From a virus (taxonomy: Duplodnaviria; Caudoviricetes), in the IMG/VR virus record IMGVR_UViG_3300011427_000001, positions 1-64,000 of that record: a stretch of 64,000 bases of DNA; one strand, written 5' to 3'. Below the pieces are notes generated by a model. The model was not told where the DNA came from. It ran no database searches and was given only the letters and a program-made list of their open reading frames with translations. This document shows positions 12,299 through 32,543 of this stretch, piece by piece. Numbering within the stretch: the first letter of the stretch is position 1; each line of letters opens with the position of its first letter. Position numbers and translations under genes: made by a program.

Positions 12299-12656
12299 GT
12301 GCGAGTTGTTTCATGTGTTGCTTCACCTTCTCTGGACTACGAGCAAGCAAACGACTGGCACGTTCAAGTGAGCAACCTGCTTCCTTCAACCGCACCAGTA
12401 TCTTGTCATGCCGTGGAATCCAAATGTGTCGGTCCATGCAAGGCGCGTCGACCTGCTCAATGGTGCATTTGTGCACACCCGAGAATATTGAATCAACTCT
12501 ACTGATTACCTCGAAGCGTCGCACCTCCAACACCTGCGCAATTCGATCTATGTCCATGCCAACCATGAACACCCACCACATCCAATCAAGGTCGCATTGT
12601 CGCCGCCACTGGTCAGAAGAAGCCTCGAGGGCTAGCAGGCTTTCGGTGTCCATCAT
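12291..12656 (-). CDS. Hypothetical protein (possible HTH)
   Basis: MDIDRIAQVLEV and LERASRLL helices. Confidence 0.5.
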   Translation of the reverse strand: MMDTESLLALEASSDQWRRQCDLDWMWWVFMVGMDIDRIAQVLEVRRFEVISRVDSIFSGVHKCTIEQVDAPCMDRHIWIPRHDKILVRLKEAGCSLERASRLLARSPEKVKQHMKQLAHG

Positions 12657-13491
12657 TTATTTTCCTCCAAGGCATGCGTTCACGAATCGACTTCATCCCC
12701 AACGCGTCAGTCACGCGCTTCCACCCATCATCGTCAAGCTCATCAGGAGACCAGTGCATAGGTGCGACACCCGCAAATGGCAGCTCCACGAGACGTCGGT
12801 TGCGCTTCACAATGTCCCAGCCGTTCTGAATGGCTTGATACTTCTTGGACATCGCTGGCAGCTCGCCCCGCACGTACTTCAACGCCGTTGTCGTGCCTAC
12901 CCCGCGGATGCCCGGCACCTCATCAGTCTTGCAACCCGCAATCGCAATCACCTTGGCCCAGAGCCGAGGTTGAATACCATAGTCCTTCACAAAACCCTGC
13001 AGCGAACGAATCTTGCCCTTGTTCGGATTGTAGATTGTGACCGACCCTGAAAGCAACTGGTAGAGGTCTTTGTCCGAGGACACGACCACGGCCTCGTCGT
13101 CCGGCCCCAAGGCTTTGACCAGTGCTGCAATGAGGTCGTCACTCTCGTACCCCGCCTGATGGAACACGTTGCGAAAGCCCATGTCGAACAGGTACTGCTC
13201 CCGCAAGCTGTCAATCTGTCGATGCAGCTCGGCCCGGGCCTTGGTCTCCTCTTCAGTATGCTCCTCAGTATGCCGTCGCTTCTTGTACTCGGGAAACAGA
13301 GCCTTGCGCTTGCTCTCGGTTGAATCAAAACAGAACGCCACTGCACCCGCGTCGTGGTCCGACTGCAGCATAGACAGGTCTTTCAGCATGCCGTAGATGA
13401 CACCAGTGGGAATATCTTCATGCGTCAAATGCCCCATGCTATGGAACGCACGCCACGCCAGGAAGTGCATGTCTAAAATCAAGTGCTTCAT
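12613..13491 (-). CDS. 5'-3' exonuclease / flap endonuclease
   Basis: LILD, RKALFPEYK, YESDDLIA, SSDKDLYQL, H3TH GCKTDEVPGIRGVG. Confidence 0.92.
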   Translation of the reverse strand: MKHLILDMHFLAWRAFHSMGHLTHEDIPTGVIYGMLKDLSMLQSDHDAGAVAFCFDSTESKRKALFPEYKKRRHTEEHTEEETKARAELHRQIDSLREQYLFDMGFRNVFHQAGYESDDLIAALVKALGPDDEAVVVSSDKDLYQLLSGSVTIYNPNKGKIRSLQGFVKDYGIQPRLWAKVIAIAGCKTDEVPGIRGVGTTTALKYVRGELPAMSKKYQAIQNGWDIVKRNRRLVELPFAGVAPMHWSPDELDDDGWKRVTDALGMKSIRERMPWRKINDGHRKPASPRGFF

Positions 13492-13877
13492 CCGGAGAAG
13501 CCAAACCCAGCACCTCGAGGCGGCTGAATTGGTGCCCGCGCTTTGACCTCTTCAGCCGTACGCTTGAAACAATGGGCCAACCATTCGTAGTCCTGATGCC
13601 ACTTCAGAGCTTTGTCCAAGCAATCGAGCTCGTACTGCGTCCAACGTCTACCGGACCGCTCAGTTGAAATCACAATGGAGGTATCTTCACCTCGATACTT
13701 ACCAAGCACTTTCCAAATCTTGGTGTAGACCGCATGGTAGCTTCGGCCTGTCTCCTCGCAGTGCTGTCGCAGCGATTTCTGACCATCGAACACCCTGCAC
13801 ATCATTTCATGTGCTTCATGCGTAGTAAACAGCACACCTGCCCGCTTGTGGGTCTTGTCTTTGACACCTTTAGGCAT
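13488..13877 (-). CDS. Hypothetical protein with HTH/Myb-like segments
   Basis: SLRQHCEETGRSY; RRWTQYELDCL...KRTAEEVK. Confidence 0.55.
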   Translation of the reverse strand: MPKGVKDKTHKRAGVLFTTHEAHEMMCRVFDGQKSLRQHCEETGRSYHAVYTKIWKVLGKYRGEDTSIVISTERSGRRWTQYELDCLDKALKWHQDYEWLAHCFKRTAEEVKARAPIQPPRGAGFGFSG

Positions 13878-14058
13878 TTCGAGGTTTCTTGCGGTTCACT
13901 CGCAGCACCTGCGAAACATGAATCTCATTGCGACGCCCCAATTCGTAGATGAGGACATGCTCTTTGGTCGCACGGGTACTGGTGATAAGACCCACCCGCG
14001 GCATGTCCTTGTCGTCCATGTAAACCACAAGGTCATTGCGCTTGAAGACTGAGCTCAT
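13870..14058 (-). CDS. Small SH3/KOW-like protein
   Basis: FKRNDLVVY...VGLI; ATGA overlap. Confidence 0.55.
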   Translation of the reverse strand: MSSVFKRNDLVVYMDDKDMPRVGLITSTRATKEHVLIYELGRRNEIHVSQVLRVNRKKPRNA

Positions 14059-15173
14059 GCGTATCGAGGTTTGCGATCCAGTTCGCACGCTGCCTCAATC
14101 TCGGTCCACACGCCGTGCATCGCCGCCTTGAGGTCTTCCTGCAGATTGTTCTCTTCAACGTGCTTGATGATTTGGTTGCGCGTGCCCTCGAAGTCCAGCT
14201 CCCGGGCATCGTAGCTGCTTGACTCCTCCTCGCTCTTCTTCTTCTTGACCGGCTTCCACGCCTTGTGGTCAATCATGAAGTCAACATTGGCTCCCACGTC
14301 GTCAATCCCAAAGCTGTGATAGATGGGAATTTCGACCGTGCGGTCCTTGCCTGTGATGCGATTCTTCTTCACTCGGGCCTCGACAATGACACCCACAATC
14401 TTGGTCTCACCTTTCACCGTGCGCTTCAACCGTTCCTTGACCGACGTCCAGATTTCAAGCGTGGCATAGAAGCGCAGCGACTTGCCCCCGCTACGAGTCT
14501 TCTTGTCCATCCCCATGCCCAGGTTGTCACGGGTCTGACCGATGATGATGAGAATGCTGCCCGTGTCGCGAAGGCCAATGAGCACGCGGCGGATGTTCTC
14601 GGAATGGGCCTTTGCTTTGCCATCCCCGTAACTCCCAGCCGTGTCCTTACCCTTCTCGTAGGCTTCCTTGCGCTCCGCAAACTTCTCGTCGGACGCGTCA
14701 CTGGTAAGTGAATCCTGACTGTCCAGCACATAGATGAACGGACGGGCCAACCGCTTGGCGCGCTTGATGGCATTGTCCACGTGGAAGTAGAAACTCTCCA
14801 CCGTGGAACTGTACACCGGCTCCCCTTTCTCGTCATAGCTGGGAGCCCGGATACGTGCCGCCATCTTCGAACCAAAGTAACGCTCCAAGTCCATCAACGC
14901 ACCGTCTTCCACGTTGTCGTGATAGAACTCGTAGTCCTCGAAATCTGGATTGATGCTGGCCTCTGCCGCACACGTCAGCGAGAGCCACGTCTTGCCGCTT
15001 GTGCTGTCCCCCACGATGAAGACGTACTTGCCCTTGATGAGACCGCCTTCGGCCCTACCGCTGCAGGCAAGGTCCAGCGCAGTGCTTCCCGTGGACAAGC
15101 AGTCGGAAGCTTTGATACCGGGTTGTACCGTCTTTCGCTTCAACTGCTTCTTGATGTCTTCAGTCTCGCTCAT
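14055..15173 (-). CDS. recA: RecA/UvsX-like recombinase
   Basis: CLSTGSTALDLA, Walker A GDSTSGKT, VLDSQDSL, IGQTRDN, SGGKSLRFYA, VKKNRI. Confidence 0.92.
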   Translation of the reverse strand: MSETEDIKKQLKRKTVQPGIKASDCLSTGSTALDLACSGRAEGGLIKGKYVFIVGDSTSGKTWLSLTCAAEASINPDFEDYEFYHDNVEDGALMDLERYFGSKMAARIRAPSYDEKGEPVYSSTVESFYFHVDNAIKRAKRLARPFIYVLDSQDSLTSDASDEKFAERKEAYEKGKDTAGSYGDGKAKAHSENIRRVLIGLRDTGSILIIIGQTRDNLGMGMDKKTRSGGKSLRFYATLEIWTSVKERLKRTVKGETKIVGVIVEARVKKNRITGKDRTVEIPIYHSFGIDDVGANVDFMIDHKAWKPVKKKKSEEESSSYDARELDFEGTRNQIIKHVEENNLQEDLKAAMHGVWTEIEAACELDRKPRYA

Positions 15174-15243
15174 AAAAATGTAAGTGGGCGGGAGCGGGGT
15201 AGTCCCCCGCCCACTGCAGGTTTGGTGTTACTTTAGTCGCAGC

Positions 15244-16470
15244 TCAGTCCCAATCATCCTTCGCCTTCCCAGCCGGCTCGCGTTCCTCGCGGCCACCCCC
15301 ACGACGGTCATCGTCGCGGGAACCCCGGCGCTCTTCCCGAGCCGCAGGCTCACGCTCGCGGGTGCCCCGTTCAGCGGCCGGAGCACGCTCTTCCCGCGAC
15401 CCACGCCGGCGGTCGTCATCCTTCGGCTTGTCGTCTTTGTTGCTGGGTGGAGGGTCACGGTCAGCATCAAACTCCTCCTTCGGCTTCTCGTCACGGGACC
15501 CACGCCGGTCATCATCACGTTGCGACCCGCGACGGTCTTCGCTCTCACGAGAACCACCCCGGGGACTGTCATCCCGTGACCGGGAATCCGTTCTCGAGGC
15601 CGGCTCGCGTTCCTCGCGGCCACCCCCACGACGGTCATCGTCGCGAGCCGGTGCCCGATCATCATCACGGGAACTACGACGGTCGTCGTCACGACCACCC
15701 CGGTCACGGTCCGGAGCACGCTCTTCCCGGTCACGTGCAGGCGGACGGTCGTCGTCACGCTTGCGACTGGCAGGCTCCTGGAAGAAGAGCTCCTTCAGCT
15801 TGTCGTAGCTCTCGGTGATGAGCATGGCGTCGAGGTCAAAACCCTCGTCCATGATTTTGTCACCGTACGGCTCACGAGTCTTGAAGTCGATGGTCTCCGC
15901 TTCGTACCATGTGCGCTTGCCCTGCTTGACCTCCGTGAAGCCAACCTTGAGCGTGAAACCCTTGGCCAAGTGATAGAAGAGATGGTAGTTGTCCCCTTCG
16001 TCTTGGTCGCGAATGCGAGCGTCCAGCAGTTTGCCAAACAGGTGGTAACTGTAGTCCCACGGCTGGACCAGCTTGTCCCGAGTATCGAGATCGACAACCT
16101 GGAACAATTGGCGCTCCTTGGGGTACAGGGCCTTGATGAGCTTCTCGTCTGCGCCGTCGTCGCTCTTCAGCTTCTTCTGGAACTCGCACACGGGGCACGG
16201 CAGACCGAACGTGCGGTTGGGACACACCATTGTGTCGTTGTTGGGACCGATGTCCCGATGCACGAAAATGGTGCGCTCGTAGTGCAGCTGACCGGCGTCA
16301 GCGTGCGGGTTACCCTTCAACGCCACAAAGGGAATGAAGTCCAGCCGGTACACCCCCTCCTTGTCGACCTTGAAGGGCTTCACTCCCTTCGGCATCTTGA
16401 GATACTTGCTGTCGAAGCTATCATGCTCGTCGGCCCGTTTGCGGGCGTCAGAGTAACTGTAATTACCCAT
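15244..16470 (-). CDS. Single-stranded DNA-binding protein (T4 gp32-like) with long R/D/E-rich repeat tail
   Basis: DFIPF, C..CPVCE Zn site, LFGKLL, GFTLKV; acidic tip DDWD. Confidence 0.8.
   Translation of the reverse strand: MGNYSYSDARKRADEHDSFDSKYLKMPKGVKPFKVDKEGVYRLDFIPFVALKGNPHADAGQLHYERTIFVHRDIGPNNDTMVCPNRTFGLPCPVCEFQKKLKSDDGADEKLIKALYPKERQLFQVVDLDTRDKLVQPWDYSYHLFGKLLDARIRDQDEGDNYHLFYHLAKGFTLKVGFTEVKQGKRTWYEAETIDFKTREPYGDKIMDEGFDLDAMLITESYDKLKELFFQEPASRKRDDDRPPARDREERAPDRDRGGRDDDRRSSRDDDRAPARDDDRRGGGREEREPASRTDSRSRDDSPRGGSRESEDRRGSQRDDDRRGSRDEKPKEEFDADRDPPPSNKDDKPKDDDRRRGSREERAPAAERGTREREPAAREERRGSRDDDRRGGGREEREPAGKAKDDWD
15272..15645. repeat. 47-bp exact direct repeat (15272-15318, 15599-15645) in SSB tail
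   Basis: Seen directly; 327-bp offset (109 codons). Confidence 0.9.
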
Positions 16471-16475
16471 GGTGG

Positions 16476-16643
16476 TTATTTGTTTTTGGTTGACGACTCA
16501 AAGAGCTTCATCTGCTTGCGCTCCTGGTGCTCAGCCCAGACCCGCTTCCCGCTGGTCCAGCCAAACGATGCGGCCTTGGCGCAGAAGTAGATCAAAATGG
16601 GCAAAACCACACAAGACAAAGCAACTATGAAGAGGGGATGCAT
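16476..16643 (-). CDS. Small single-TM protein (55 aa, MHPLFIVALS...QMKLFESSTKNK)
   Basis: Hand-translated; fills the gap between UvsY and SSB. Confidence 0.6.
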   Translation of the reverse strand: MHPLFIVALSCVVLPILIYFCAKAASFGWTSGKRVWAEHQERKQMKLFESSTKNK

Positions 16644-16644
16644 G

Positions 16645-17127
16645 CTAGGCAGTGGACCGGTCTTCCAGTCTGTGGCCCAAACGACGGACCCGGTCCTTTG
16701 TTACATCCTCCACGGCCTCACGTCCTTCCCGAGTAATACGAGGGTCGGCAAAGTAGTTTTGACCGTGCAAGTTGACCAAGGCTTGAATCATCGACTTGCG
16801 CTGCTCAATGGCAATGACCATCGCTGCTATGACATCCTGATGATGACGTGCATCAAACAGCTCACCTTGTGCCCGCTTCACGTCGGGGTGGTTGGTCACG
16901 GCCTCGGCCACCGACCCTTCCGTCACCTTCTCCAGATTGAACTTCGCTGGGTTGTTCCGAATCTCCCGCGCCGACTCAGCCTTCACGACTTCGAAGTTGT
17001 TGCGCGCCTCCTCAGTCAAGAGCTTGGCATCGGCTAGCTTGGCCGACCATTTGAAGTAGAGCTGGGGCTGCTCGAGACAGGCCTTGTCCAGCTCCAGTTC
17101 GTCAATCTTGAGACAGTCTGAGTCCAT
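16645..17127 (-). CDS. UvsY-like recombination mediator
   Basis: LKIDELELDKACLEQPQLYFKW...IEQRKSMI helical pattern; next to SSB/RecA. Confidence 0.7.
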   Translation of the reverse strand: MDSDCLKIDELELDKACLEQPQLYFKWSAKLADAKLLTEEARNNFEVVKAESAREIRNNPAKFNLEKVTEGSVAEAVTNHPDVKRAQGELFDARHHQDVIAAMVIAIEQRKSMIQALVNLHGQNYFADPRITREGREAVEDVTKDRVRRLGHRLEDRSTA

Positions 17128-17138
17128 GTGTGCCTGTA

Positions 17139-18059
17139 TTATCGGCGGTCTTTCAGCACGGCGTAGCACGCCAGCACAAGCCCCGCCCGACCTGAGTCAT
17201 AGAAGTTTTGTTTGAACACGTCCATCAGGAAGAAGGCGCGTTCGTTGCTACTGTTGAGTAGAATGCTGCTCGCGTATCCCAGCACCAAGCGGCGGATGGC
17301 CTCCGGCTCCTCATCGCAGGTCTTGATCAGCGCCGCCACTTCCGACCACGGCGTCTTGGGATTCATCAGCAGCCGTGCAATCTGAATTGCCGCGGCCCGA
17401 TGGTCGTTGTCCTCAATGGACTTCATCTGCTCCGCTGGGTCCTTGATTGACAGGATAGCGTTGAGCAGCACCAGCGCCTTGCGCGCACTGGACTCCGAGT
17501 GCTCGACAATCTTGGTACATACTTCCTTCGAAAGGTCAAAGCGCACGAGGTCCGCAATGTCTTCCACCACGGCCTGCAGCGCCGCTGGCTTCATCGCCTT
17601 CAACCGAATCTCCGTGCAACGGGTGTTGATAGTGGGCAGCACTTTGACCGGGTCGGTCGTTGCCAGCATGAAGTAAACGTGCTTCGGGGTATCTTCCAGC
17701 ATCTTGAGCAGCATGTTCTGCGCATCCTTGGTCAGCTGGTGACACTCGTCGATGAGATAGATGCGCACCTTGCCGCCTATTGGATGCAGATGCATGCGCT
17801 GCGCAATCTCGCGCACCGTGTCGATGCCCCGGAAGTTGGCTGCATTCTTCTCATCAAAGTCCTGGTCGCTGCACTCCAGCTCCTTCTGCAGGATGCGAGC
17901 CAACGTGGTCTTACCCACCCCGCTGGGACCCGTAAAGAGCATCGCATGCGGCATGGAGCCTTCATTCAAAAAGCCCTGCAGGATTTTGACCGCCTCATCC
18001 TGTCCGATGACATGCTTGAATGAAGTGGGTCGGTATTCTTTGTATAGTTCGTCGCTCAT
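17139..18059 (-). CDS. Clamp-loader AAA+ subunit (DnaX gamma/tau-like)
   Basis: YRPTSFKHVIGQ, GPSGVGKTT, IDECHQLT, LLKMLEDTP, TINTRC. Confidence 0.9.
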   Translation of the reverse strand: MSDELYKEYRPTSFKHVIGQDEAVKILQGFLNEGSMPHAMLFTGPSGVGKTTLARILQKELECSDQDFDEKNAANFRGIDTVREIAQRMHLHPIGGKVRIYLIDECHQLTKDAQNMLLKMLEDTPKHVYFMLATTDPVKVLPTINTRCTEIRLKAMKPAALQAVVEDIADLVRFDLSKEVCTKIVEHSESSARKALVLLNAILSIKDPAEQMKSIEDNDHRAAAIQIARLLMNPKTPWSEVAALIKTCDEEPEAIRRLVLGYASSILLNSSNERAFFLMDVFKQNFYDSGRAGLVLACYAVLKDRR

Positions 18060-19567
18060 GATGGTTTCATGTTATGTTCTAGCATCTCGAGAAACTGCTC
18101 CACGTCTTCCGTGTTCACCTTGTCGTCCTTGCCCTTGGGGGTGAAGCCGAACTCAATCCCATCCCACTTAAATGGGTACTTGTGAAACCAGGTACCGGTG
18201 GGAGGACAGATCTCATCTTCAACTTCAAGCGGACAAATGATCCACTTGAACGCCTTGCGGAGGTCTTCGTTGACCACCTGGTGCACCAAATCGAGATACT
18301 GCTTCAGTTCCTTGATGTAAACGTCACCCAGCATGCTGTCATGAACTTGCATCACCACACGTGACTTCATCTTGTGTTTGCGCAGCAACTTATTCAGACG
18401 AGTGAGCGTCCACAGCAAGCAATGAAAGGCGCTGCCCTGCACCGGGTAGTTGATAACCTGATTGCGCCGGAACGCCCCTTCAATCCGGAAACCAGTCAAC
18501 GTATCAAACCCACCTTCCTCAAGGTAGTCCTCATACCACTTCTTCTTCCACGCACTGTAGACCTTGAATCGATTGTTCCAAAAGTCATCTTCAACCTCTT
18601 GGATGTGCTTCTCGAAAGTACCATCAAGTGGACCTCCCTTGGCTTTGGGGTCACACGCCCCCAGCTCAAAGATACCATTTGCGCGCAAATGCTCCCGCAA
18701 AGGACGGCCATCGGGACCCAACAGCTTCGCACGTTCCATCCACTCCCACAAGTCAGGGGCGCATTGCTTGTAATAGCTGCCGTAGAACTCAGGAAACACA
18801 AACCTGTTCTTGCCACCGTAGCGATGGTTCTTGCCATACTTCTTCACCCACTCGTTCTTCAAGAAGTAAATCTGAGCTGACATGTCCCCGTGCATATCCT
18901 TGGTCGGGTCAGTCAAGTAACTAATCATGACCGGGTCTCGATGGTAGCACGTTGCAATTGAAACCTCCGCACCCTTGAAGTCATTCTCAACCAGAACGTA
19001 GTTCTGATCGGTTGCAATGAAATTGGTGCGCAGCAACTCAGCCTGCATCGGGTCACGCACTGGCACATTCTGGAAGTCCGATGACGACCGATACGTCACC
19101 GTGGTATGCAAATCGTAATTCGGATGGAACCTCCCATTGACCAAGGTACGCTTGATGCGTTTTAGATATGTACCATGCGCCTTGTTCAGCTGAGATAGGA
19201 TTTGATAGCCACGCAAGAAGTGCAGATCGATCTTTTCCAATGCACCTATCTCGACCGAAGGCTGTCCCTCCCCCTCTTCATCGCCGGTCCACTGCGTCAC
19301 AGGGAACTTCATCTCACCGTACAGCACATCCCGCAACTGGTCATCGGAGTGCAAATTGGCCTTGGTGCCGAACCGCCGCTGCCAAATCTCCCACACCTCA
19401 TCCTGACGCAGCTTGTCCTCAATCCGACGCATGCGCTCCTTGGCCATCTCCGTGGTCGCATCCAACCGTCTCTCGTCAACCCTGATACCAGTTGCCTCGA
19501 TCTCAGCCAAGGCAATCATACCCTCGTGCAACAGCTGGTATCCTTTGTGTGTGTTAGGTCGTTCCAT
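18056..19567 (-). CDS. polA: Family A DNA polymerase, polymerase domain only
   Basis: TYRSSS..QNVP, motif A NDFKGAEV, motif B KNRFVFPEFYG, INYPVQGSA, motif C QVHDS. Confidence 0.92.
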   Translation of the reverse strand: MERPNTHKGYQLLHEGMIALAEIEATGIRVDERRLDATTEMAKERMRRIEDKLRQDEVWEIWQRRFGTKANLHSDDQLRDVLYGEMKFPVTQWTGDEEGEGQPSVEIGALEKIDLHFLRGYQILSQLNKAHGTYLKRIKRTLVNGRFHPNYDLHTTVTYRSSSDFQNVPVRDPMQAELLRTNFIATDQNYVLVENDFKGAEVSIATCYHRDPVMISYLTDPTKDMHGDMSAQIYFLKNEWVKKYGKNHRYGGKNRFVFPEFYGSYYKQCAPDLWEWMERAKLLGPDGRPLREHLRANGIFELGACDPKAKGGPLDGTFEKHIQEVEDDFWNNRFKVYSAWKKKWYEDYLEEGGFDTLTGFRIEGAFRRNQVINYPVQGSAFHCLLWTLTRLNKLLRKHKMKSRVVMQVHDSMLGDVYIKELKQYLDLVHQVVNEDLRKAFKWIICPLEVEDEICPPTGTWFHKYPFKWDGIEFGFTPKGKDDKVNTEDVEQFLEMLEHNMKPS

Positions 19568-20804
19568 GCAGGCTTGATTCGTTTACGTACCAAGTTGGCA
19601 ACGGGTCTATCCTTAGCTTCGCCATTTGCTTCTCAGCCAGCAAATATTCAAGCAGCGTGTCAGTACCACAGTAAAGCAACAGCTGACGAAGCTCCACTTC
19701 CTCTCGCACCCGGTTCAATACGCTACCGGCTTGGCTTTCGAGGAACTGCTTGATATGCTCATCGTACGCCTCAGCCCCCAGGTGAGCAAACGCCTGAAAC
19801 TTCAACCCGCAAATGCCTTTTCGATTGTCAATCACGTGTGCTGCCAGCATGGTATCCCACAACCAATTCTGCACCGGACGCCCTGACACCTTGCGCGTCC
19901 ACCGTTCTTCGTGTTTGAGGTTCGACGCAATGTGGTAGCAGCGTTCGGAATGCAGCAGGTCGAACGTGGCTTCAATCGCCGCTCCGTGCCAAGGGTACGC
20001 AATGGTCTTGCGTCCCCGCCAACAGGCCGAAGCACACACAATCTCACCACCCGGGGTCTCGGGCTTCAGACAGTTGTTTTCATAGTCGAACGCAATCGCC
20101 CCTCCTTTCTGTTCCATCTTGCGCAGCACTGCAGCCGCTTCGTCCGTGTCAAGCAGCACTTCAATCTGCGACTCGTAGTCTGGGACCTGTTCCCACGGTA
20201 CCTCGCGATAGCTGCAGGCCTTCTCGAGATGTCGCACGAAGTCCCGGTCCATGACCTTGCTGTGCATTCGCATTAGATAGGACGGATGGTACGTGGGGCT
20301 GATCCACACATTGGGTTTCTGGCATGGGATGTTCCAGCCAACCCAGCGAGTAATGGCACCCGGTGCCTCCTTCCAGACGTGGCCTATCAAACTCTGCACG
20401 GGAGTGCCACCCAACAGCACAATCGAAGCGGGCTGCAACCGCTCAATCGTCGTGATCAAATTGGGGCGACAGTAGTCCACGGCCCGCTTGTCCGAAATCT
20501 TGTTGTCGGGTGGACGACAAATGAGAGCGTTCGTAGTCCAGCAGTCTTTCCTCAGGTCAATCCCAATGTGATCAAGTGCGTCTTCGAGGTAGCGACCCGC
20601 CTTGTCTACAAACTGAATGCCTTCATCGTCTTCATTCGCTCCCGGCGCTTCGCCCACGATTAAGATCCGTTTGCGACCTTCGCCGCTTGGTCGCATCTTC
20701 GGTGTCTTGCACCCCTTGTAAAGACCGCACGCCCCACACTTGGGCAATAGGCTTGCCGGTGCTTTGGTGTCCAGCAGCTCACTCCCAGCAAAAAATCCTC
20801 TCAC
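19554..20804 (-). CDS. Family-4 UDG-like domain fused to 3'-5' exonuclease (N-terminal part of split PolA)
   Basis: CGAC, GEAPG, NALICRP, YHPSY; ExoI FDYE, ExoIII YCGTD. Confidence 0.88.
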   Translation of the reverse strand: MRGFFAGSELLDTKAPASLLPKCGACGLYKGCKTPKMRPSGEGRKRILIVGEAPGANEDDEGIQFVDKAGRYLEDALDHIGIDLRKDCWTTNALICRPPDNKISDKRAVDYCRPNLITTIERLQPASIVLLGGTPVQSLIGHVWKEAPGAITRWVGWNIPCQKPNVWISPTYHPSYLMRMHSKVMDRDFVRHLEKACSYREVPWEQVPDYESQIEVLLDTDEAAAVLRKMEQKGGAIAFDYENNCLKPETPGGEIVCASACWRGRKTIAYPWHGAAIEATFDLLHSERCYHIASNLKHEERWTRKVSGRPVQNWLWDTMLAAHVIDNRKGICGLKFQAFAHLGAEAYDEHIKQFLESQAGSVLNRVREEVELRQLLLYCGTDTLLEYLLAEKQMAKLRIDPLPTWYVNESSLHGTT

Positions 20805-20807
20805 AGA

Positions 20808-21872
20808 TCAATCCCCTTTGACCTTTTCCTTCAGCGTCTTGCTCGTCTTGCTTTCGTCCGGCGCGGTCAAGCACGTCATGTAAACCCACTTGCCCCCATC
20901 AACCCGCAAGCGTCCCTTGGCAATCTCCGCTTCATTGTGCTTCTCGGTCAGCTCAGTCAGCAGTTTGGGAGCAATGAGAAACTCCATCGGCGGACCACTG
21001 TATTTGAGGTCCTTGACCTCGCGGAAGCGTCCACAGGCCCCTTCGCCCGTAATGCGCAGCATTCCACCCCGGTCCGGTCGCAACTGCACCGTGACCACGT
21101 TGTCCTCACTGTTCTCCGCGCTGAATACTTCAGCCAAGTCGGTCGCTTCCTTCAACCCCTTGGGCAGCGTAATCGGTTCGCCTTTGAAATCCAACAGGGA
21201 ATCGATGTTATGGTATTCCACCATATACCGACGGCAGGACAACACCAGGCCGTCCGCGTTGCGGAAATGAATCCACGTTTCGGTCTCGCAAAAGTCGGTC
21301 ATCCCCAATGACGCAACGTGCTTGAGACTGTCCCGCCGCACCAGCATGGACGCCTTAACCCCGGTCTTCATTTTGACCCGCGTGGCTTGGAAATTGTCGC
21401 ACGCCTCGATGAAGTCAGGATGCAGATGGATGCAGGTCAGCTTGAATTGGCTGGCATCCTTCGAAGCACAGTGCTGCACCAAACCCACCCCTTCCAAGAA
21501 GTCTCCGTGCAACTCCACCCACTTGGTGGGCTTTTCCACTTTGTCGATGTGCAGCAGGATGTCGTTCTCGTGCCGGATCTCAGCACGTCGCCGCTTCCCA
21601 ATCAACACGAAGTATCCGTCAGCCACCTCAACCTCGAGCTCGGTCTCGGGCATCTTGCGCAGCACGGACAGCAGTGGAGCCGCTTGCACTGCCCCCTCAA
21701 CCTTCAGCTCACATTCGTGGGTGCAAGCAATCTCATCGTTGAAAGTCATCACGGTCTGGTTCTGAAAGACAAAGCAGGAACTCTGCTCAATGATCTCTCG
21801 AGTGGACAGACCCGGTTGAACCGCTTCAAGTTGAAGCAGAAGTTTTTCCCTGTTTACGATTTGAATAGCCAT
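20808..21872 (-). CDS. Sliding clamp (Pol III beta-like)
   Basis: 354 aa, repeated beta-clamp-like domains; adjacent to polymerase and clamp loader. Confidence 0.75.
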   Translation of the reverse strand: MAIQIVNREKLLLQLEAVQPGLSTREIIEQSSCFVFQNQTVMTFNDEIACTHECELKVEGAVQAAPLLSVLRKMPETELEVEVADGYFVLIGKRRRAEIRHENDILLHIDKVEKPTKWVELHGDFLEGVGLVQHCASKDASQFKLTCIHLHPDFIEACDNFQATRVKMKTGVKASMLVRRDSLKHVASLGMTDFCETETWIHFRNADGLVLSCRRYMVEYHNIDSLLDFKGEPITLPKGLKEATDLAEVFSAENSEDNVVTVQLRPDRGGMLRITGEGACGRFREVKDLKYSGPPMEFLIAPKLLTELTEKHNEAEIAKGRLRVDGGKWVYMTCLTAPDESKTSKTLKEKVKGD

Positions 21873-21877
21873 TGTTT

Positions 21878-22354
21878 TTAGATGTGCTTCCAGGTCTGCC
21901 GTAAGACAACTGAAGATATTGTTGACGAACTCACATTGTATTGTCGTGCGAGCCGATACTGTGTCCCGCGAATACCCTTAGAAACCTGCGCTCGAATATG
22001 CAAAACAGCTTCTGACGTTAATGTGTGATTCCCCGAATCATCTCCTACGGGATGACGTGCTCGGTTCTTCTTTATGGCATCCCTCACGTTATCTCTAGGA
22101 GAACCCACGAACAAATGTCGCGGATTCACGCACGACGGATTGTCACATCGGTGTAAAGACCATTCGGATCTCAAAAGAGGCCTTCCTAATTTCAACTCAA
22201 GTGAAAAACGATGTGCCAAGATATGATTACCCAAACCACGCCTAGGCGCTAGGCGCCCATAGCCTTTCATGTCCTTAGAACCTAGCCACAACCAACACTC
22301 ATCCAATCGGCCCTTTCGCACCTTATTCCAGAAACGCACCAGTACCGGTTTCAT
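21878..22354 (-). CDS. HNH homing endonuclease (HNH_3-type) with C-terminal HTH
   Basis: RFWNKV, CWLWLG, LHRCDNPSCVNPRHL; lower GC than flanks. Confidence 0.9.
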   Translation of the reverse strand: MKPVLVRFWNKVRKGRLDECWLWLGSKDMKGYGRLAPRRGLGNHILAHRFSLELKLGRPLLRSEWSLHRCDNPSCVNPRHLFVGSPRDNVRDAIKKNRARHPVGDDSGNHTLTSEAVLHIRAQVSKGIRGTQYRLARQYNVSSSTISSVVLRQTWKHI

Positions 22355-22572
22355 TTTTCTTTTGGGCGTGGACGGTAGTTGAGAATTGGACCGGGTTGCG
22401 CCTTACCCCTATTTATCAGCGACTGCTGATGCACCGCAAAACGACGCATGGTATCCCGCACTCGGCGCTGATAGATATCGTGGAAGGTAAGCATGATTGA
22501 CAGCTCGTGCTGGTGCATCAACGCCTCCGGCACCACGTCTCTGCTTGAGTTGCCGCTGTAGTAGATTACCAT
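22351..22572 (-). CDS. Small protein resembling an N-terminal beta-alpha-beta piece of a TGT/DpdA barrel
   Basis: MVIYYSG...IMLTF; starts 1 nt after the DpdA-like stop. Confidence 0.5.
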   Translation of the reverse strand: MVIYYSGNSSRDVVPEALMHQHELSIMLTFHDIYQRRVRDTMRRFAVHQQSLINRGKAQPGPILNYRPRPKEK

Positions 22573-22573
22573 G

Positions 22574-23497
22574 TTATTCGTTGAACCCGAATCCTTCGCC
22601 CCGGGTCTGGCGCATGAACGGCCAAGGCCATTGGGGCAAGCTGTCCGACATGGCCATGAAGTATCTCAAATTTGCTTCCGCTCTAGGCTTATGGTGTGTG
22701 AGCACTCCGCGTTCCACCTCGACACCGCTACCATCGTACCTACCAAGCGCGATCCCATGCAGGGACAGCCACGCAAGCATAATTTCCCGTTCCTTTGACG
22801 ATACGGTGGTGATATGCTTGCCCTGCTCCTTCATGTTTGGGGACTTCCCGCTCATCGTAATTGAGTAGGGCTTCTCGTCGAAAACGAACTTCCCGCCGCG
22901 CTGATGGGGGACGTAGACCGTACCAAAAGCCGCAGCCTTAATCCAGCTGGCGCTGTCCACACTCCACCACGGGTACCTCCGCATGAGGTCCCAGCTCGTC
23001 ATCGCAAACCCATGCGTCTTGACGACGGGGAACTTGTCGTTGCTGGCTGGACAGATGAGATGGAACACGCGGTCGGCCCAGCCGTAGTATTCGTCCTTCG
23101 TTACCTCCTGTCCCAGTCCACCAATTCCGAGAAAGTCATAACCCCGCTCAAGGTAGTGGGTAATCCATTTGAGGGGAGTGCCAAAGTGGATAACGGGGAC
23201 CGGACGCAGACCGTGTTCCCTTTCGAGATACTGCTGAACTTTCCACGTGACCTCTGGGTTAAAGATAGCGTCGACGTTGGCGTAAAAGTCCATCGCCCAA
23301 CCGAAGCGTTTGATAAAACCAGCGTAGCTGTCACAGTAGGCATAGAATTCATCAGTCTCGTAGAACTTGTAACCGTTTCGCCCCTTGAGATCTATCACCT
23401 CTCGCGTGTAGATACTGTGCGCTCCGCTATCGAGAAAGAAACTACCCACTGCGGTGGGGATGTTCTCCAGAGGATGCGGTTCTTTGAGCTTGGTCAT
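22574..23497 (-). CDS. dpdA: DpdA/TGT-like deazaguanine transglycosylase
   Basis: FLDSGA, NVD, PVIHFG, IGGLG, HGF, SVDSASW with both catalytic Asp positions; inside the que operon. Confidence 0.8.
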   Translation of the reverse strand: MTKLKEPHPLENIPTAVGSFFLDSGAHSIYTREVIDLKGRNGYKFYETDEFYAYCDSYAGFIKRFGWAMDFYANVDAIFNPEVTWKVQQYLEREHGLRPVPVIHFGTPLKWITHYLERGYDFLGIGGLGQEVTKDEYYGWADRVFHLICPASNDKFPVVKTHGFAMTSWDLMRRYPWWSVDSASWIKAAAFGTVYVPHQRGGKFVFDEKPYSITMSGKSPNMKEQGKHITTVSSKEREIMLAWLSLHGIALGRYDGSGVEVERGVLTHHKPRAEANLRYFMAMSDSLPQWPWPFMRQTRGEGFGFNE

Positions 23498-24639
23498 ATC
23501 TGCGCGTGCCAGATGTTTACTTCATTGTCTGGGTTGCGCAGCCCGCACACAATTTCAGCTTCAAGAACACGACCGGCATCACATTGCATTGCAATTGACC
23601 TGAAACCAAGGCACCGACACTGCACCTTTTCACTGAGAAGACGCAACACTGACCTCATGTCAAAAGCCTGATACATGTTCTGCGCCGGCAGTATTTCCGG
23701 AAAGCTCCGGAAGTGGGGATACACCAGGTTACACCCCGCAATGCACGCCTCCAACAGCGTCCACGAAACGTAGTCTTGCAAGGAGCAGTTGAATTGAATG
23801 GCCGCAGTGGCAAGCTCATTGTAATACTGCTCCTTCGTGAGACCCGAAAGCAGTTTGAACCGCGGCTCGTCTTGTGCGAACTCGACAATCTCCTTCAGCG
23901 TCTCGGGTTCGTTCGAGCGGAAGTCAGCTGCACTGGTCGTCACACACCAAGTCCAGTCCTTGTACCTCAGCAAGAACAAACGAGCCACTTCAAGCATGAA
24001 CCTTGGGTTCTTCTCTCGATCCAGCCTCGAGGTAAAAACTACCTTCCGTTCACGCTGCGACAGCATGGCCGGCATCTGTGCTTCCACCGCACTGACTGAA
24101 ATGGGTAAGCCCACCACATGGATAGGACATTCAAAGCCGGCAACGCGCAACTGGTCACGATGAATAGTGCTACCAACAAAGACCGCAGTGTGCACTCGGG
24201 ACAAGCCCACTTCCATGGGACGCATCCAATGGCGCATGCCCCACGTGAAGTCGTATTCATCCACGCTCTGCGCATGCAGCATCGAGTAGATCTTCACTCC
24301 GGTCAGCCCGTACAAGTGCAGCGCATACGGCACAGCCTCAAACCCCGGTGTCCAGAAGTCCTGCAGAAAAATGGCATCGTCGTTGCTGACCGACCCGCTC
24401 CGGATCTCACGCATGAAATTCTCAACCTGTCGACAAGCATACATCCCACGACCAGTGGCATCCAGCACCGCCCCCACCGTAATCTGCGCCTCCACCTGAC
24501 AGCCTTCAATCTTAACAAACAGCGTCGAAGGAGAGACCGCTGCCACTGCTTTGGGAAACCAGTCTTCGCAGAGCTGCTTCGTATATCGTGCAGCCAGCGG
24601 TTCAAGTCCAAAATAGAACAGTCTTCGAATGGGCTTCAT
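23494..24639 (-). CDS. GT-B (GT4-like) glycosyltransferase
   Basis: VVFTSRLDREK, TLLEA..AGC...YP...SFPE; start MKPIRR by TAATG overlap. Confidence 0.85.
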   Translation of the reverse strand: MKPIRRLFYFGLEPLAARYTKQLCEDWFPKAVAAVSPSTLFVKIEGCQVEAQITVGAVLDATGRGMYACRQVENFMREIRSGSVSNDDAIFLQDFWTPGFEAVPYALHLYGLTGVKIYSMLHAQSVDEYDFTWGMRHWMRPMEVGLSRVHTAVFVGSTIHRDQLRVAGFECPIHVVGLPISVSAVEAQMPAMLSQRERKVVFTSRLDREKNPRFMLEVARLFLLRYKDWTWCVTTSAADFRSNEPETLKEIVEFAQDEPRFKLLSGLTKEQYYNELATAAIQFNCSLQDYVSWTLLEACIAGCNLVYPHFRSFPEILPAQNMYQAFDMRSVLRLLSEKVQCRCLGFRSIAMQCDAGRVLEAEIVCGLRNPDNEVNIWHAQI

Positions 24640-25403
24640 TAATAGAATAGTCCGCGACGCTTCGGACACGCGGATTCGTGCACAAAGATCCGGTCGCGCA
24701 TGCGGGACAGAACCACAGTTGGATCTTCCAGTGGGGCTAGGTCTGTCGTGTATGCCAGGTACCCACGGGCGCGCAGCAACGTCCAAATGTCTGCAGGAGT
24801 GTCACTGTACCTCTTGAGGAACTCTGGTACCTGCTCAAGCACAATGACCGGACGACTGTCCGCGAGAATGCGCTGAGCCCCTTTCAGCACTTTGAGTTCG
24901 TACCCCTCAACGTCTATCTTGAGTACGTCAACCAGGGTGTTAAGACGAACACAGTCGTCAAGGCGCTCAAGCGGGACCAAGGTACCCATCGTCCCTTTGC
25001 CCACATGTCCACCCAGATGGGCTGTAGGCGTTGACACAATCCGAATTTCGCTCTGCTCGGCCCCCAACGCACAATTCTCGGACTTCACGTTCGATACTTT
25101 GTTGTCAGCCAAGTTCCGCACCAGAAGCGCATAGATGTTCGGGTCGGCCTCGAATGATTGCACCTGTCTGGCCCACCCCGAGAAAGTCAGAGCGGTCTGT
25201 CCTACGTTGGCACCTACGTCCAACACCAAACCCGCACCCGGCTTCAAACGCTTGAGCGAGGCCAACGTCACCGCCCCATAGACCTTGGCGTAGGTGAGCA
25301 GTTTGGCCCGCTCATCCTGTTTTGGCATCCAGTACGTAAATCCCGAGCGCGCTTTGATCTGCTCAACCGGGAAGGGAACCTTGGGTGGGGTCTGCTCAGA
25401 CAT
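24639..25403 (-). CDS. FkbM-family methyltransferase
   Basis: LDVGANVG, FEAD, ALG, RLDD, LKIDVEGYELKVLKGA. Confidence 0.92.
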   Translation of the reverse strand: MSEQTPPKVPFPVEQIKARSGFTYWMPKQDERAKLLTYAKVYGAVTLASLKRLKPGAGLVLDVGANVGQTALTFSGWARQVQSFEADPNIYALLVRNLADNKVSNVKSENCALGAEQSEIRIVSTPTAHLGGHVGKGTMGTLVPLERLDDCVRLNTLVDVLKIDVEGYELKVLKGAQRILADSRPVIVLEQVPEFLKRYSDTPADIWTLLRARGYLAYTTDLAPLEDPTVVLSRMRDRIFVHESACPKRRGLFY

Positions 25404-29875: not shown

Positions 29876-31282
29876 TTAGAAGCACGACCGCACAGCGGGA
29901 TTGCTCATGGCCAAGCATGCCGCAACCGCCACCGTATCGGTCTCAACGTACTCTCCTTCCCGCAGCACTACCCAATTCAACCGATATACCTCCAGCTTCT
30001 TCTCCGCGTCGTTTTGGTTGATGCCCAACAGCCCGGTCACGTGCGACAGCTTGCGCTTGTCTTCCGAGAAGTTCGTGCGTCTAATGATCTCGGTCGTGAA
30101 GCTGTCGGTGTCAGACTGTGTCGCGGTCACGTACAGGACATGCCACTTCGAACTCAGCCCCCGCTGTTGTTTCCACGATGCGTTAATGCGGTCGCGTGAT
30201 GAGGTGGCAGTGGGGTCCGCTGCAGCCTCGTCGAGAATGTCAGCGTAGTCGACCACCACCACGTCAGGCACCCAGCCTTCGCGTGCCCAGATCTCGAGCT
30301 GGGCGTCAATACCTTTCACACTGAGCGTTGAGTTGGGATGTGCTACGAAGCGCAGGTACTCCTTGCCTCGAACCCGATATTGCGCGGTCTCCTGAAAAGC
30401 CAGCTTGGCGTCTCGAAAGCTAAGGGGTGCGTCGAACACTCGCTCTTCGTGCTTTACCTGCACTTCGTTTTCCACCCGCCGCATTTTGGTTGGGTAGAGC
30501 ACCGTGTGCGGCCAGTGCTTCGCTTTGACTGGCCGACCAGCAGCCCGGGCCGCAAATCGTCGCAGCATCTGTCGTTCGCTCATGTCACCTGCCGCAAACC
30601 AAGCTACCCGCCTGCGTTGCAGAATTGCTCGCCACCCGATGTCAATCAACCAAAAACTCTTGCCCCGCTTCTCGGGTGCCATGAACACCACGAACGCGTC
30701 CCGGGTCAACTGATTGCGAAGCATTGACCCCAACGCCCCGGGGTAGGTTACAATGTCATCCACGTCATCTTCCAACGCTGCACGCAATGCTTCGTCGTCT
30801 TCCAACACATTGACAACTGAACCAGTGCCCAGCTCGACCTTGCCAAACTTGTTGACCTCGGCGGTCGCGTCTTCAACCTTGCCAGTCTCCAACCCTTCAG
30901 TCACGGTCTCGACCAATCGTTGCAACCGCACGCGAGTGAAATGTTTCGCGGCCCGGTCTATCACGTAGCTGCTATTGATTTCCTTCCGCAGCGTTTCATA
31001 TTCCCCACTCAAGCCACGCAGGAACTTCTCCACCAAGTCAACCGTGTCCTTGTCCTTGTTCGTTTGGGCCCACGCCTCAAACACACCCTCAATGTCCCCT
31101 TGGGGTGCTCGCTCGTGATTGACCAGATACCGGACGCACCAACCTCCCACAATGTTTGCCCAGCGGCTGCGAAACAGACCCTCCTGCCACTTCGGCGTGA
31201 TGCGCGCAAGTGTGGTCGTATCCACAATCATTGCTGTCAGAATTGTGCGCTCTTCGTTGCCTTCAATGCGTTCAATTCTCAT
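29876..31282 (-). CDS. dnaB: Replicative DnaB-like helicase
   Basis: Walker A APEKRGKS, GDMSERQ, VVVDYAD, TATQS, SEDKRK. Confidence 0.88.
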   Translation of the reverse strand: MRIERIEGNEERTILTAMIVDTTTLARITPKWQEGLFRSRWANIVGGWCVRYLVNHERAPQGDIEGVFEAWAQTNKDKDTVDLVEKFLRGLSGEYETLRKEINSSYVIDRAAKHFTRVRLQRLVETVTEGLETGKVEDATAEVNKFGKVELGTGSVVNVLEDDEALRAALEDDVDDIVTYPGALGSMLRNQLTRDAFVVFMAPEKRGKSFWLIDIGWRAILQRRRVAWFAAGDMSERQMLRRFAARAAGRPVKAKHWPHTVLYPTKMRRVENEVQVKHEERVFDAPLSFRDAKLAFQETAQYRVRGKEYLRFVAHPNSTLSVKGIDAQLEIWAREGWVPDVVVVDYADILDEAAADPTATSSRDRINASWKQQRGLSSKWHVLYVTATQSDTDSFTTEIIRRTNFSEDKRKLSHVTGLLGINQNDAEKKLEVYRLNWVVLREGEYVETDTVAVAACLAMSNPAVRSCF

Positions 31283-32543
31283 TGAGGCGTTTTAGGTAGT
31301 CTTCGAACTTGGGCATTGCAGCACGTCCCATTTTCAGGAAGTCGGGATGTCCTTCCCAGAAGGTGTAAGACTTGAGCGACCCGCTCCATTCCTTCCAATC
31401 CCGGGTCTGTTGCTGCACCCGCCTGAACCATTCCTGCACGAAGGCCGGAGTGGAGCGCACCAACTCAACCATGGCATTACGAATGATGTCGTGTTGCAGA
31501 CGCTCAGATATACCGGTCGGCCGCTGCTCCTCCCATTTGAAATACCTCTTCCGAAAAGCAGCGTGTGCATCGAAGCTGGTGCGAATGGCCTGCTTCAACT
31601 CAGCATCCGTGCACGCCCATTTCACTTCACGCAAACGGTCAAAGACGAGCTGCTCAGGTTCTGTGAGTTGAATCTGTTCTACCTTCCCGTTTACGGCTTT
31701 GGCCATTCTGTCCACTGAGCTTTGGGCCATCCTTGCTTCTATCTTAGTGAACTTGTCCCGAAAGTCTTCGGCTGAATGAACCTGTGGCATCATCTCTTGC
31801 TTCCAGTGCAAGGTGTACCAAACCAAAACAGTTCGCAAACGCTCTTTGTTCCCGTCCACCATATCTAATGTTTCCTGCATGAAACGCTGCCATCTTGTAC
31901 GACTTGGAGCTCGTGTTAGCCTTCTAGCTTGTCTGATGTGAGTCTCGAGCTCGTGACATGCTCTTTGAACGAATGTGGGTTTTTCTATCCCCCCAAAGAA
32001 ACCCCCGTGCACTTTTTTCTCACCCTCTCCGTTACGACGGGAGGGAGTAACTGTGTTATTCTCTTCTCCTATTATTCTCCTATTAAGTATCTTGACGGTT
32101 TCGCCAAGATTATCTTCTCGTTTTCGAGAAGCAATCTTCTCGTTTTCGTCAAGATGGAGGGAGCTCCCTATTGTACCCTTCGCCCTTAAAGACGACAAGT
32201 AACGAGCGAAATGTTCCTCTAGTAGGCGATAGTACTTCTTCTGTGGAATACCCATGCACCTAGTGTTGACCCAACCGAAGATCTCCCATTTTTTCATCAC
32301 TGTTCGAAAGGCATACAGGGACAGACCCACCGGCTCGCAAAATAGCTTGGGTTGAATGAAAATCTTATCCTGTCCTTCTGCTTTGAACTTCTCCCAAAGA
32401 TAAAGGAATCGACGTATGATAACGGCCTCCTCGATAGAAGAGCCACGAGCTAAGTCATTGTCATAAACCGTGACGTTGCGTTCATTGTTTGCCTTCCAAA
32501 CATCATACGGTATCTGTTCCACATTGGGTTGCTCGATTTTCAT
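31272..32543 (-). CDS. Replication initiator/organiser-like protein
   Basis: N-terminal wHTH ending GIPQKKYYRL, linker with iterons; sits between primase and helicase. Confidence 0.65.
   Translation of the reverse strand: MKIEQPNVEQIPYDVWKANNERNVTVYDNDLARGSSIEEAVIIRRFLYLWEKFKAEGQDKIFIQPKLFCEPVGLSLYAFRTVMKKWEIFGWVNTRCMGIPQKKYYRLLEEHFARYLSSLRAKGTIGSSLHLDENEKIASRKREDNLGETVKILNRRIIGEENNTVTPSRRNGEGEKKVHGGFFGGIEKPTFVQRACHELETHIRQARRLTRAPSRTRWQRFMQETLDMVDGNKERLRTVLVWYTLHWKQEMMPQVHSAEDFRDKFTKIEARMAQSSVDRMAKAVNGKVEQIQLTEPEQLVFDRLREVKWACTDAELKQAIRTSFDAHAAFRKRYFKWEEQRPTGISERLQHDIIRNAMVELVRSTPAFVQEWFRRVQQQTRDWKEWSGSLKSYTFWEGHPDFLKMGRAAMPKFEDYLKRLNEN
32089..32155. repeat. Three tandem 22-23-bp quasi-palindromic iterons (putative origin)
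   Basis: ATCTTGACGGTTTCGCCAAGAT, ATCTTCTCGTTTTCGAGAAGCA, ATCTTCTCGTTTTCGTCAAGAT; AT-rich flank. Confidence 0.65.

Follow-up and report, generated by a model that had tools for sequence, protein, structure and literature searches.

A short terminal peptide shared by replication and DNA-modification proteins of an uncultured tailed phage: a probable motif for binding the phage's own sliding clamp

Several replication and DNA-modification proteins encoded by the phage genome studied here share a short peptide at one of their ends, [K/R]-G-F-(G/x)-[L/F/I] or GFF, which is probably a clade-specific motif for binding the sliding clamp that the phage itself encodes. The genome is that of IMG/VR record IMGVR_UViG_3300011427_000001 (Duplodnaviria; Caudoviricetes), a complete virus record of 73,187 bp with direct terminal repeats, and the stretch analysed, called the window below, is its first 64 kb (64,000 nucleotides). 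The proposal draws on comparison of sequences, and a clamp-binding motif is the best explanation of what these bring together: a conserved terminal motif, gained repeatedly by unrelated DNA enzymes and sited on flexible linkers, a clamp gene adjacent to them, and carriers of the type that clamps serve. We infer the clamp as the partner, the cleft between its domains II and III as the docking site, the affinity of the contact and the coupling of modification to replication. The clamp and the main carriers are the following (peptides at C-termini are written up to the last residue before the stop):

12613..12630, minus strand: C-terminal PRGFF of FEN, a 5'-3' exonuclease (gene 12613-13491; Pfam 5_3_exonuc_N, E 2.5e-28)
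13488..13520, minus strand: C-terminal PRGAGFGFSG of orf129, a small Myb/SANT-like protein (gene 13488-13877)
20790..20804, minus strand: N-terminal (M)RGFF of the UDG-exo subunit of a split family-A polymerase (gene 19554-20804)
20808..21872, minus strand: beta-type (DnaN-like) sliding clamp of 354 amino acids, the proposed docking hub (profile, PHROG and Foldseek matches)
22574..22606, minus strand: C-terminal TRGEGFGFNE of a DpdA-like DNA transglycosylase (gene 22574-23497; PHROG 887, E 3e-36)

RESULTS

Position and conservation of the motif

About 165 related loci were gathered from IMG/VR with the clamp and DpdA as probes; no close relative was found among cultured phages when the region and the clamp were searched by megablast and tblastn. 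The termini that the original prediction had quoted from the window, and an internal GGFFGG, are all present as it stated, on the minus strand. It had condensed them into an RG-x-F-F consensus, of which the terminal motif stands while the form does not, the relatives giving [K/R]-G-F-(G/x)-[L/F/I] or GFF. The motif is placed in the last 2-8 residues of a protein or, in its N-terminal form, at residues 2-7, and this position is kept in orthologues at 30-60% identity; conservation in orthologues, which had been put forward as a check, was found for the polymerase subunit, DpdA, FEN and the orf129 family. The carriers are of at least eight unrelated folds and use either terminus (the N-end in one of them). 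As is typical of clamp-binding motifs, the peptide is short and lies at a terminus or in a disordered linker, and several unrelated proteins, the replicative polymerase included, share it.

The N-terminal copy is the most regular. The UDG-exo gene begins with a GTG three bases past the clamp stop, with a GGGGA Shine-Dalgarno-like run upstream, and we consider this start sound because relatives have the same N-terminus with an ATG. M-x(0-4)-[G/A/S]FF is found in about 55 of 57 unique orthologous sequences, down to 31% identity, and the GFF lies about 20 residues ahead of a CxxCGL cluster. The model of the subunit has a mean predicted local distance difference test score (pLDDT) of 91, but this falls to 62-67 for residues 1-30, the rest being above 90, and the first six residues are coil. 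Alignments with the UDG-PolA homologues of cultured phages begin at residue 14 or later, mostly at about 22, and the UDG-PolA start of ctfzr933, the sole one read, has no GFF extension. When the polymerase N-end type (FF or LF) was set against the DpdA tail of the same genome, 4-5 of the 6 'LF' genomes had Leu-type DpdA tails, but these are small numbers, maybe from one clade, and were not used as evidence.

A tblastn search with the DpdA-like protein retrieves the DpdA proteins of phage 9g and of CAjan-like and Vibrio phages (29-35% identity). The protein belongs to the TGT-like family and is encoded within a 7-deazaguanine synthesis cluster, with a QueE-like gene (PHROG 2076) and FolE2- and QueD-like open reading frames (ORFs; recognized by eye) beside it, its activity being predicted. 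In the alignment of its orthologues (A2), the conserved WPWPF gives way to a K/R-rich linker that varies in composition and in length (4-16 residues), and this leads into [K/R]GFG[L/F/I/V] or GFF, at the very end or at most 2 residues from it. In a loose form (the last five residues including two hydrophobic ones, together with a basic residue) the motif is present in 61 of 86 unique DpdA tails. One base past the dpdA stop, a 73-residue ORF (22351-22572, minus strand) begins MVIYYSG...MLTFHD, and in four relatives of alignment A2 (L017, L057, L071 and L006) this segment (IFYSG/IYYGG ... MLTFHD) forms the N-terminal part of DpdA itself, as a fusion; DpdA therefore seems to be split here, its N-terminal strands being encoded downstream.

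About 9 of 24 FEN tails end in a motif-like way when inspected by eye (e.g. KGFGLT, GGFGL, KGFW, NGFGI and KGFI), and the orthologues devoid of the motif stop directly after the fold. As for orf129, it is a homologue of a family of 132-144 amino acids in the related loci (BLASTP E 1e-5; alignment A4), in which all five members seen end with the motif. The tail is preceded by a Myb/SANT-like signature, R-x-G-x-x-[WF]-[TS]-x-x-E ... E-Y-[IL]-A-x-x-L-x-R-[TS]-x-x-E-V. A word-index search with orf129 as lone query found no relatives, but the A4 profile did, and a full HMMER profile search with A4 of 1.84 billion representatives brought 180 family members. Ends of the type G[FL]x?[FLIWVM] followed by 0-3 residues (typically GIKGFDL, GRKGFGL or GIKGFF) are present in 55% of the 148 members examined and in 63% of the 81 best, against a background of 2% in internal windows of the same proteins and 4% in an unrelated control set. 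On contigs that are long enough, the family genes lie either beside the clamp (L181, L184) or between RecA and FEN (L182, L183), the latter arrangement being that of the window.

Enrichment over controls

For counting on unique tails, a strict pattern was defined as G[FL] followed by either G[LFIVM] or [FWLIY], then 0-2 residues and the stop. The original prediction had called for such termini to be compared with the rest of the proteome, and the enrichment is there. In the window's replication and modification block (11.7-35.8 kb), 4 of 31 crude ORFs have the strict motif at a terminus, versus 0 of 76 elsewhere in the whole genome (Fisher p 0.006); the FkbM methyltransferase described below would be a fifth carrier and dropped out of the crude gene list by ORF overlap. 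Among relatives, the strict motif ends 27 of 86 DpdA and 6 of 24 FEN unique tails, versus 2 of 484 tails pooled over eight control families (UDG-exo C-end, polymerase, clamp, clamp loader, SSB, RecA, UvsY-like protein and glycosyltransferase); none of the 64 clamp loader tails and none of the 84 polymerase tails has it. Over 86 sources (85 related loci plus this genome), it ends 40 coding-strand ORFs when 6.2 are expected from its internal density, whereas the antisense-strand control gives 9 observed versus 7.8 expected.

The phage clamp and its neighbours

The gene at 20808-21872 had been read as a clamp from the letters alone, and its product proved to be a DnaN-type beta clamp by profile, PHROG 947 and Foldseek. 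No Pfam match was found for the 354 amino-acids protein, but a profile built from 10 orthologues matches PDB DnaN chains (4tr6, E 1.6e-16), and comparison with PHROG 947, 'processivity factor', gives an E value of 1.3e-25. With an AlphaFold model of good quality (pLDDT 87, predicted template modelling score 0.81) as query, the top Foldseek matches, which span the full length (TM ∼0.7, E ∼1e-20), are bacterial beta clamps without exception, at about 14% identity. The protein thus combines the three-domain beta-clamp fold with sequence homology to DnaN; the hidden Markov model alignment of the phage clamp ends ahead of the C-terminal strand. A gene for a gamma/delta'-like AAA+ loader is present in the same block. 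The clamp lies 0.1-3 kb downstream of dpdA in all 76 loci with enough downstream sequence, and the order dpdA-clamp-polymerase is fixed across the clade.

Cultured phages with dpdA and a clamp

Cultured phages searched with the clamp by tblastn and megablast gave nothing; the clamps of Queuovirinae surfaced through annotation and PHROG 947. The succession 7-deazaguanine genes, dpdA, beta-type clamp and polymerase is annotated in 9g, JenP1, NP1 and RHEph04, and a PHROG 947 clamp is found just downstream of dpdA in PBPA162, VPv64, R31B, BcepGomr and ZHS. In all nine of these clamp-encoding phages, DpdA ends with Q-x(1,2)-L-[F/W] (QDLFDE, QELF, QRLF, QGLF, QGLFV, QMELF or QSLW). In contrast, this end is found in none of the four phages without a PHROG 947 clamp (Cracklewink, Nicole72, Finch and BS162P1), where the DpdA ends are unrelated. 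The Q-x-L-F tails are close to the consensus for binding to the bacterial clamp, QL[SD]LF (PMC12867686). Furthermore, the polymerases of 9g, JenP1, NP1, RHEph04 and VPv64 have G-[F/L/M]-F-W near their N-end, at residues 6-12, and these N-termini echo in sequence the N-terminal GFF of the clade.

Other carriers and doubtful members

An unbiased list of motif-ended ORFs in the relatives provided further carriers, among them DNA methyltransferases of three kinds. Two N6_N4 DNA methylases encoded immediately 3' of the clamp gene end with EGFGLI (L057) and EGFGI (L073), and an MT-A70 methylase after the clamp ends with KGLGL (L155). That DNA methyltransferases of relatives carry the motif fits the notion of modification at the fork. 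The others are a CxxCxxCC zinc protein (EGFGL in L035, TGLGL in L036) and, between dpdA and the clamp of L105, a weak GcrA-like protein (KGFGI). We also noted, after the clamp of L181 (1990-3024), a methylase-like protein of 344 amino acids with ALFGRDLFG at its N-end and RDLFEGE at its C-end, which by its sequence may bear two clamp-type motifs; the gene that follows it is UDG-exo, with a start reading (V)SGLF.

Two members of the window's set are doubtful or weak, and two replication proteins listed with them have tails devoid of the motif:

17139-18059, minus strand: clamp loader (Pfam DNA_pol3_delta2/AAA, E 1e-30), tail without the motif
18056-19567, minus strand: polymerase domain subunit, tail without the motif
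24639..24662, minus strand: C-terminal KRRGLFY of an FkbM-family methyltransferase, doubtful member (gene 24639-25403; Pfam Methyltransf_21, E 2.3e-18)
31989..32006, minus strand: internal GGFFGG in the interdomain linker of a 423 amino-acids replication protein, weak candidate for an internal copy (gene 31272-32543)

The FkbM gene most likely starts at 25403, and not 25520, overlapping the end of the QueD-like gene, and its tail extends the protein by about 11 residues. No orthologues were found by word-index search, which gave only distant bacterial-type homologues (at most 38% identity), and the tail is absent from both weak homologues in the related loci and from all 56 distant homologues. 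The original prediction had taken this tail as support for FkbM acting on DNA; since there are no orthologues and the homologues lack the tail, it gives no such support yet. The next gene, for a glycosyltransferase, most likely starts at an ATG overlapping the FkbM stop at 24639 (MKPIRRLFYFGL...) and not at 24786. We rejected its N-end, MKPIRRLFYFGL, as an extra copy of the motif: it is most likely the first beta-strand of the glycosyltransferase fold. The GGFFGG of the 423 amino-acids protein has a loose counterpart at the same aligned position of the linker, where a hydrophobic-F or GFG dyad (GFF, MFF, IFG, LFG or GFG) is present in about 9 of 13 distinct orthologues.

Gene setting and other conserved tails

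The minus-strand block at ∼11.7-35.8 kb contains replication, recombination and DNA-modification genes. Its first part encodes a Holliday-junction-resolvase-like protein, FEN, orf129, a RecA/UvsX-like protein, a gp32-like SSB, a UvsY-like protein and a gamma-like clamp loader; the middle, the split family-A polymerase (polymerase subunit and UDG-exo subunit), the clamp, an HNH endonuclease, the 73-residue ORF and the DpdA-like protein; the last part, a glycosyltransferase, the FkbM methyltransferase, QueD-like, FolE2-like and QueE-like proteins, a DnaB-like helicase, the 423 amino-acids protein, a primase and a superfamily 2 (SF2) helicase. The names resolvase, HNH, QueD-like and FolE2-like were assigned by eye from the translations. 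The HNH homing endonuclease-like ORF (158 amino acids; 21878-22354, minus strand), located between the 73-residue DpdA piece and the clamp, has a single homologue (in L043) among the 85 related loci and therefore looks like a recent insertion.

Tails of other types are also conserved in the block. The primase ends with IRKELGL (32540-32563, minus strand), and about 26 orthologues have a similar helix-like tail, [IL]-[RK]-[RK]-x-[LF]-(G)-L (e.g. RRALGL, RKTLGL and RKRFL); judged by its sequence, this could be a different type of element for docking on a helicase or a clamp. The RecA/UvsX-like protein has the C-end R-K-[PR]-R-Y-x (14055-14078, minus strand), and nearly all of its orthologues, about 34 in number, keep it. 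The SSBs of the clade (15244-15270 in the window, minus strand) have acidic tips with Trp or Phe (DDWD, DDDIPF or EEIPF), and two clamps resemble the SSB tip at their C-end (DDVPF in L003, DDPF in L077). In phage 9g, the SF2 helicase (L175, 9945-11948) ends with DFDDDIPF, which we take to be the C-terminal tip of E. coli SSB; this helicase may mimic the host SSB.

DISCUSSION

Polymerases, FEN, DNA methylases and glycosylase-like enzymes are the classic clients of PCNA and beta clamps. We propose the following scheme, in which the peptide binds the phage clamp. The DnaN-type clamp (20808-21872) would be loaded by the single gamma-like loader and would then act as a tool-belt. The split family-A polymerase would grip it through the N-terminal GFF of its UDG-exo subunit, while FEN, DpdA, the DNA methyltransferases (in relatives) and the orf129-family protein would do so through their C-terminal copies. 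In this way, the newly made duplex behind the fork would undergo flap removal, 7-deazaguanine base exchange and methylation.

Several observations weigh against this proposal. The motif is devoid of the Gln and Leu of the bacterial consensus and does not match QL[SD]LF, so that its fit to the canonical cleft is an assumption. The strict pattern is found in only about a third of the DpdA tails and a quarter of the FEN tails, and the loose one also occurs in 25-31% of the polymerase and UDG-exo C-end control tails; it is thus too unspecific, and we relied on the strict definition. Within the clade, all loci have a clamp and so offer no contrast with clamp-less genomes. The contrast among cultured phages (9/9 versus 0/4), though in the predicted direction, is confounded by phylogeny because the clamp-less phages infect actinobacteria or Bacteroides. 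Finally, the RGEGFGF of DpdA and the RGAGFGF of orf129 in this genome resemble motif V of dUTPases (RGxGGFGSTG; the dUTPase of 9g has the tail GRGGFGSTGKL). This last resemblance would suit another explanation, in which the tails act within their own proteins, as Gly-aromatic arms closing over the active site or a neighbouring subunit, and are alike by convergence. We judge it very improbable: orthologues keep only [K/R]GF(G/x)[L/F] and not the RGxG part, the carriers represent at least eight unrelated folds, with the motif at the N-end in one and a non-enzymatic helix-turn-helix protein among them, and many FEN and methylase orthologues work without it. That the motif has no meaning at all, Gly/Phe-rich ends arising often by chance or composition, would be in keeping with its shortness, its degeneracy and the frequency of its loose form in some controls. 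This is hardly credible, given that the strict motif is 6-fold above expectation on the coding strand only, that its position is conserved to ∼30% identity, and that the C-end of the orf129 family is enriched 25-fold in an independent library, that of the 1.84 billion representatives.

If the peptide is indeed a docking motif, its partner could be something other than the phage clamp. Another hub of the replisome (the gp32-like SSB, the DnaB-like helicase, the clamp loader or RecA/UvsX) seems unlikely. In its favour, other proteins of the module have conserved tails of their own (the acidic W/F tip of SSB, the RK[PR]RY of RecA, the R[KR]xLGL of the primase), from which it follows that several peptide-mediated contacts exist. 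However, hubs of the SSB type present a peptide themselves and do not receive one; polymerase, FEN, methylases and a base-exchange enzyme form a client set known for clamps; and among the genes it is the clamp, rather than SSB or the helicase, that lies adjacent. Docking on the host DnaN, instead of or besides the phage clamp, is distinctly unlikely. The tails are of the clamp-motif type and, in the cultured relatives (Q-x-L-F), near-canonical for a bacterial beta clamp, and phage proteins that use the host clamp, such as MuC, are known (PMC12867686). But the Gln and Leu of the bacterial consensus, which is widely conserved, have been lost from the motif of the clade (GFGL, GFF), a phage clamp gene is found in every case, in an adjacent position, and the tail of the cultured phages occurs only together with a phage clamp even though every host has DnaN. 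The Gln-less form in the clade and the restriction of the DpdA tails to phages with a clamp of their own thus point to the phage clamp rather than to host DnaN.

A more far-reaching version of the phage-clamp proposal can be put forward tentatively. The clamp might organise a 'modify-as-you-copy' tool-belt with a private docking code, on which DpdA and the methylases would hypermodify the daughter duplex within seconds; the widespread orf129 family might be a clamp-tethered regulator coupling late transcription, or another DNA transaction, to replication in the manner of T4 gp33/gp55 and Mu MuC; and the same logic, with Q-x-L-F, might operate in Queuovirinae.

The proposed arrangement can be compared with known systems. 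In bacteria, QL[SD]LF or QLxLxL motifs are present on Pol II, Pol III alpha and delta, Pol IV, Hda, MutS/L and transposases (PMC12867686). As in the clade, many unrelated clients of a DnaN-type ring have a peptide of 4-6 residues, placed in a linker or right at one end of the protein, that closes with two hydrophobics at i,i+1 or i,i+2 (LF and LGL, to be compared with FF and FGL), and N-terminal copies exist (Hda, MuC). Unlike the bacterial motif, that of the clade has a Gly-Phe core after Lys/Arg, without Gln and Leu, its proposed partner is phage-encoded, and its clients include DNA-modifying enzymes. Clients of the T4/RB69 clamp gp45, namely the gp43 polymerase, gp33 and gp55, carry C-terminal hydrophobic tails. 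Late transcription in T4 is coupled to replication through gp45 and gp33/gp55 (PMC12867686). There, as proposed here, a phage clamp has a private tail code common to the polymerase and to small transcription-related proteins; but gp45 is a PCNA-like trimer whereas the clamp of the clade is of the beta type, and the polymerase motif is C-terminal in T4 whereas in the clade it is N-terminal and on a separate UDG-exo subunit. PCNA itself, a trimer, binds FEN1, DNMT1, UNG2 and ligase I through their PIP boxes, Qxx[LIMV]xx[FY][FY]. These clients resemble those of the clade in function, with a flap nuclease, a DNA methylase (a maintenance one in the case of PCNA) and a UDG-fold protein among them, and in having two aromatic residues, FF, at one end; UNG2 and ligase I have the motif at the N-end, like the polymerase subunit. 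However, no Qxx[LIM] precedes the clade motif, the clamp belongs to another family (beta and not PCNA type), and no evolutionary link is implied.

Regarding the orf129 family, a close parallel is in phage Mu, where the transcription factors Mor and MuC carry terminal clamp-binding motifs, MuC using the host clamp through a near-canonical QxDLF (PMC12867686). In both cases a small phage DNA-binding protein has a terminal clamp or clamp-like motif, and it is a guess that the orf129 family acts in transcription. The dpdA-clamp-polB module of 9g, JenP1, NP1, PBPA162, RHEph04 and BcepGomr is also close to that of the clade, with the same gene order, a clamp-motif-like DpdA C-end and a G-hydrophobic-F polymerase N-end. 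The differences are that Queuovirinae and their allies have a polymerase annotated as 'elongation subunit' or PolB and a Q-x-L-F tail on DpdA, while the clade has a split family-A polymerase with a UDG-like domain, the [K/R]GFG[L/F] tail and more clients.

Clamp-binding tails as a kind are already well known. What is new to the literature that we searched, in which no link between DpdA and a clamp was found, is the divergent code, its place at the N-end of a split family-A polymerase, a client set with DpdA and DNA methylases in it, and a large family of tailed Myb-like proteins, the members of which, judging from their sequences, are likely to be clamp adaptors. With the code [K/R]GF(G/x)[L/F], further clamp clients can be predicted in uncultured phages. 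Cultured coliphages and Pseudomonas phages (9g, NP1), which share the arrangement but have Q-x-L-F tails, already allow a bench test of the idea. The literature searched offers no explanation of how DpdA reaches guanines throughout the genome fast enough to protect it against restriction; if the proposal is true, the replication clamp would serve as a tether for base exchange, and in relatives for methylation as well, just as PCNA does for DNMT1.

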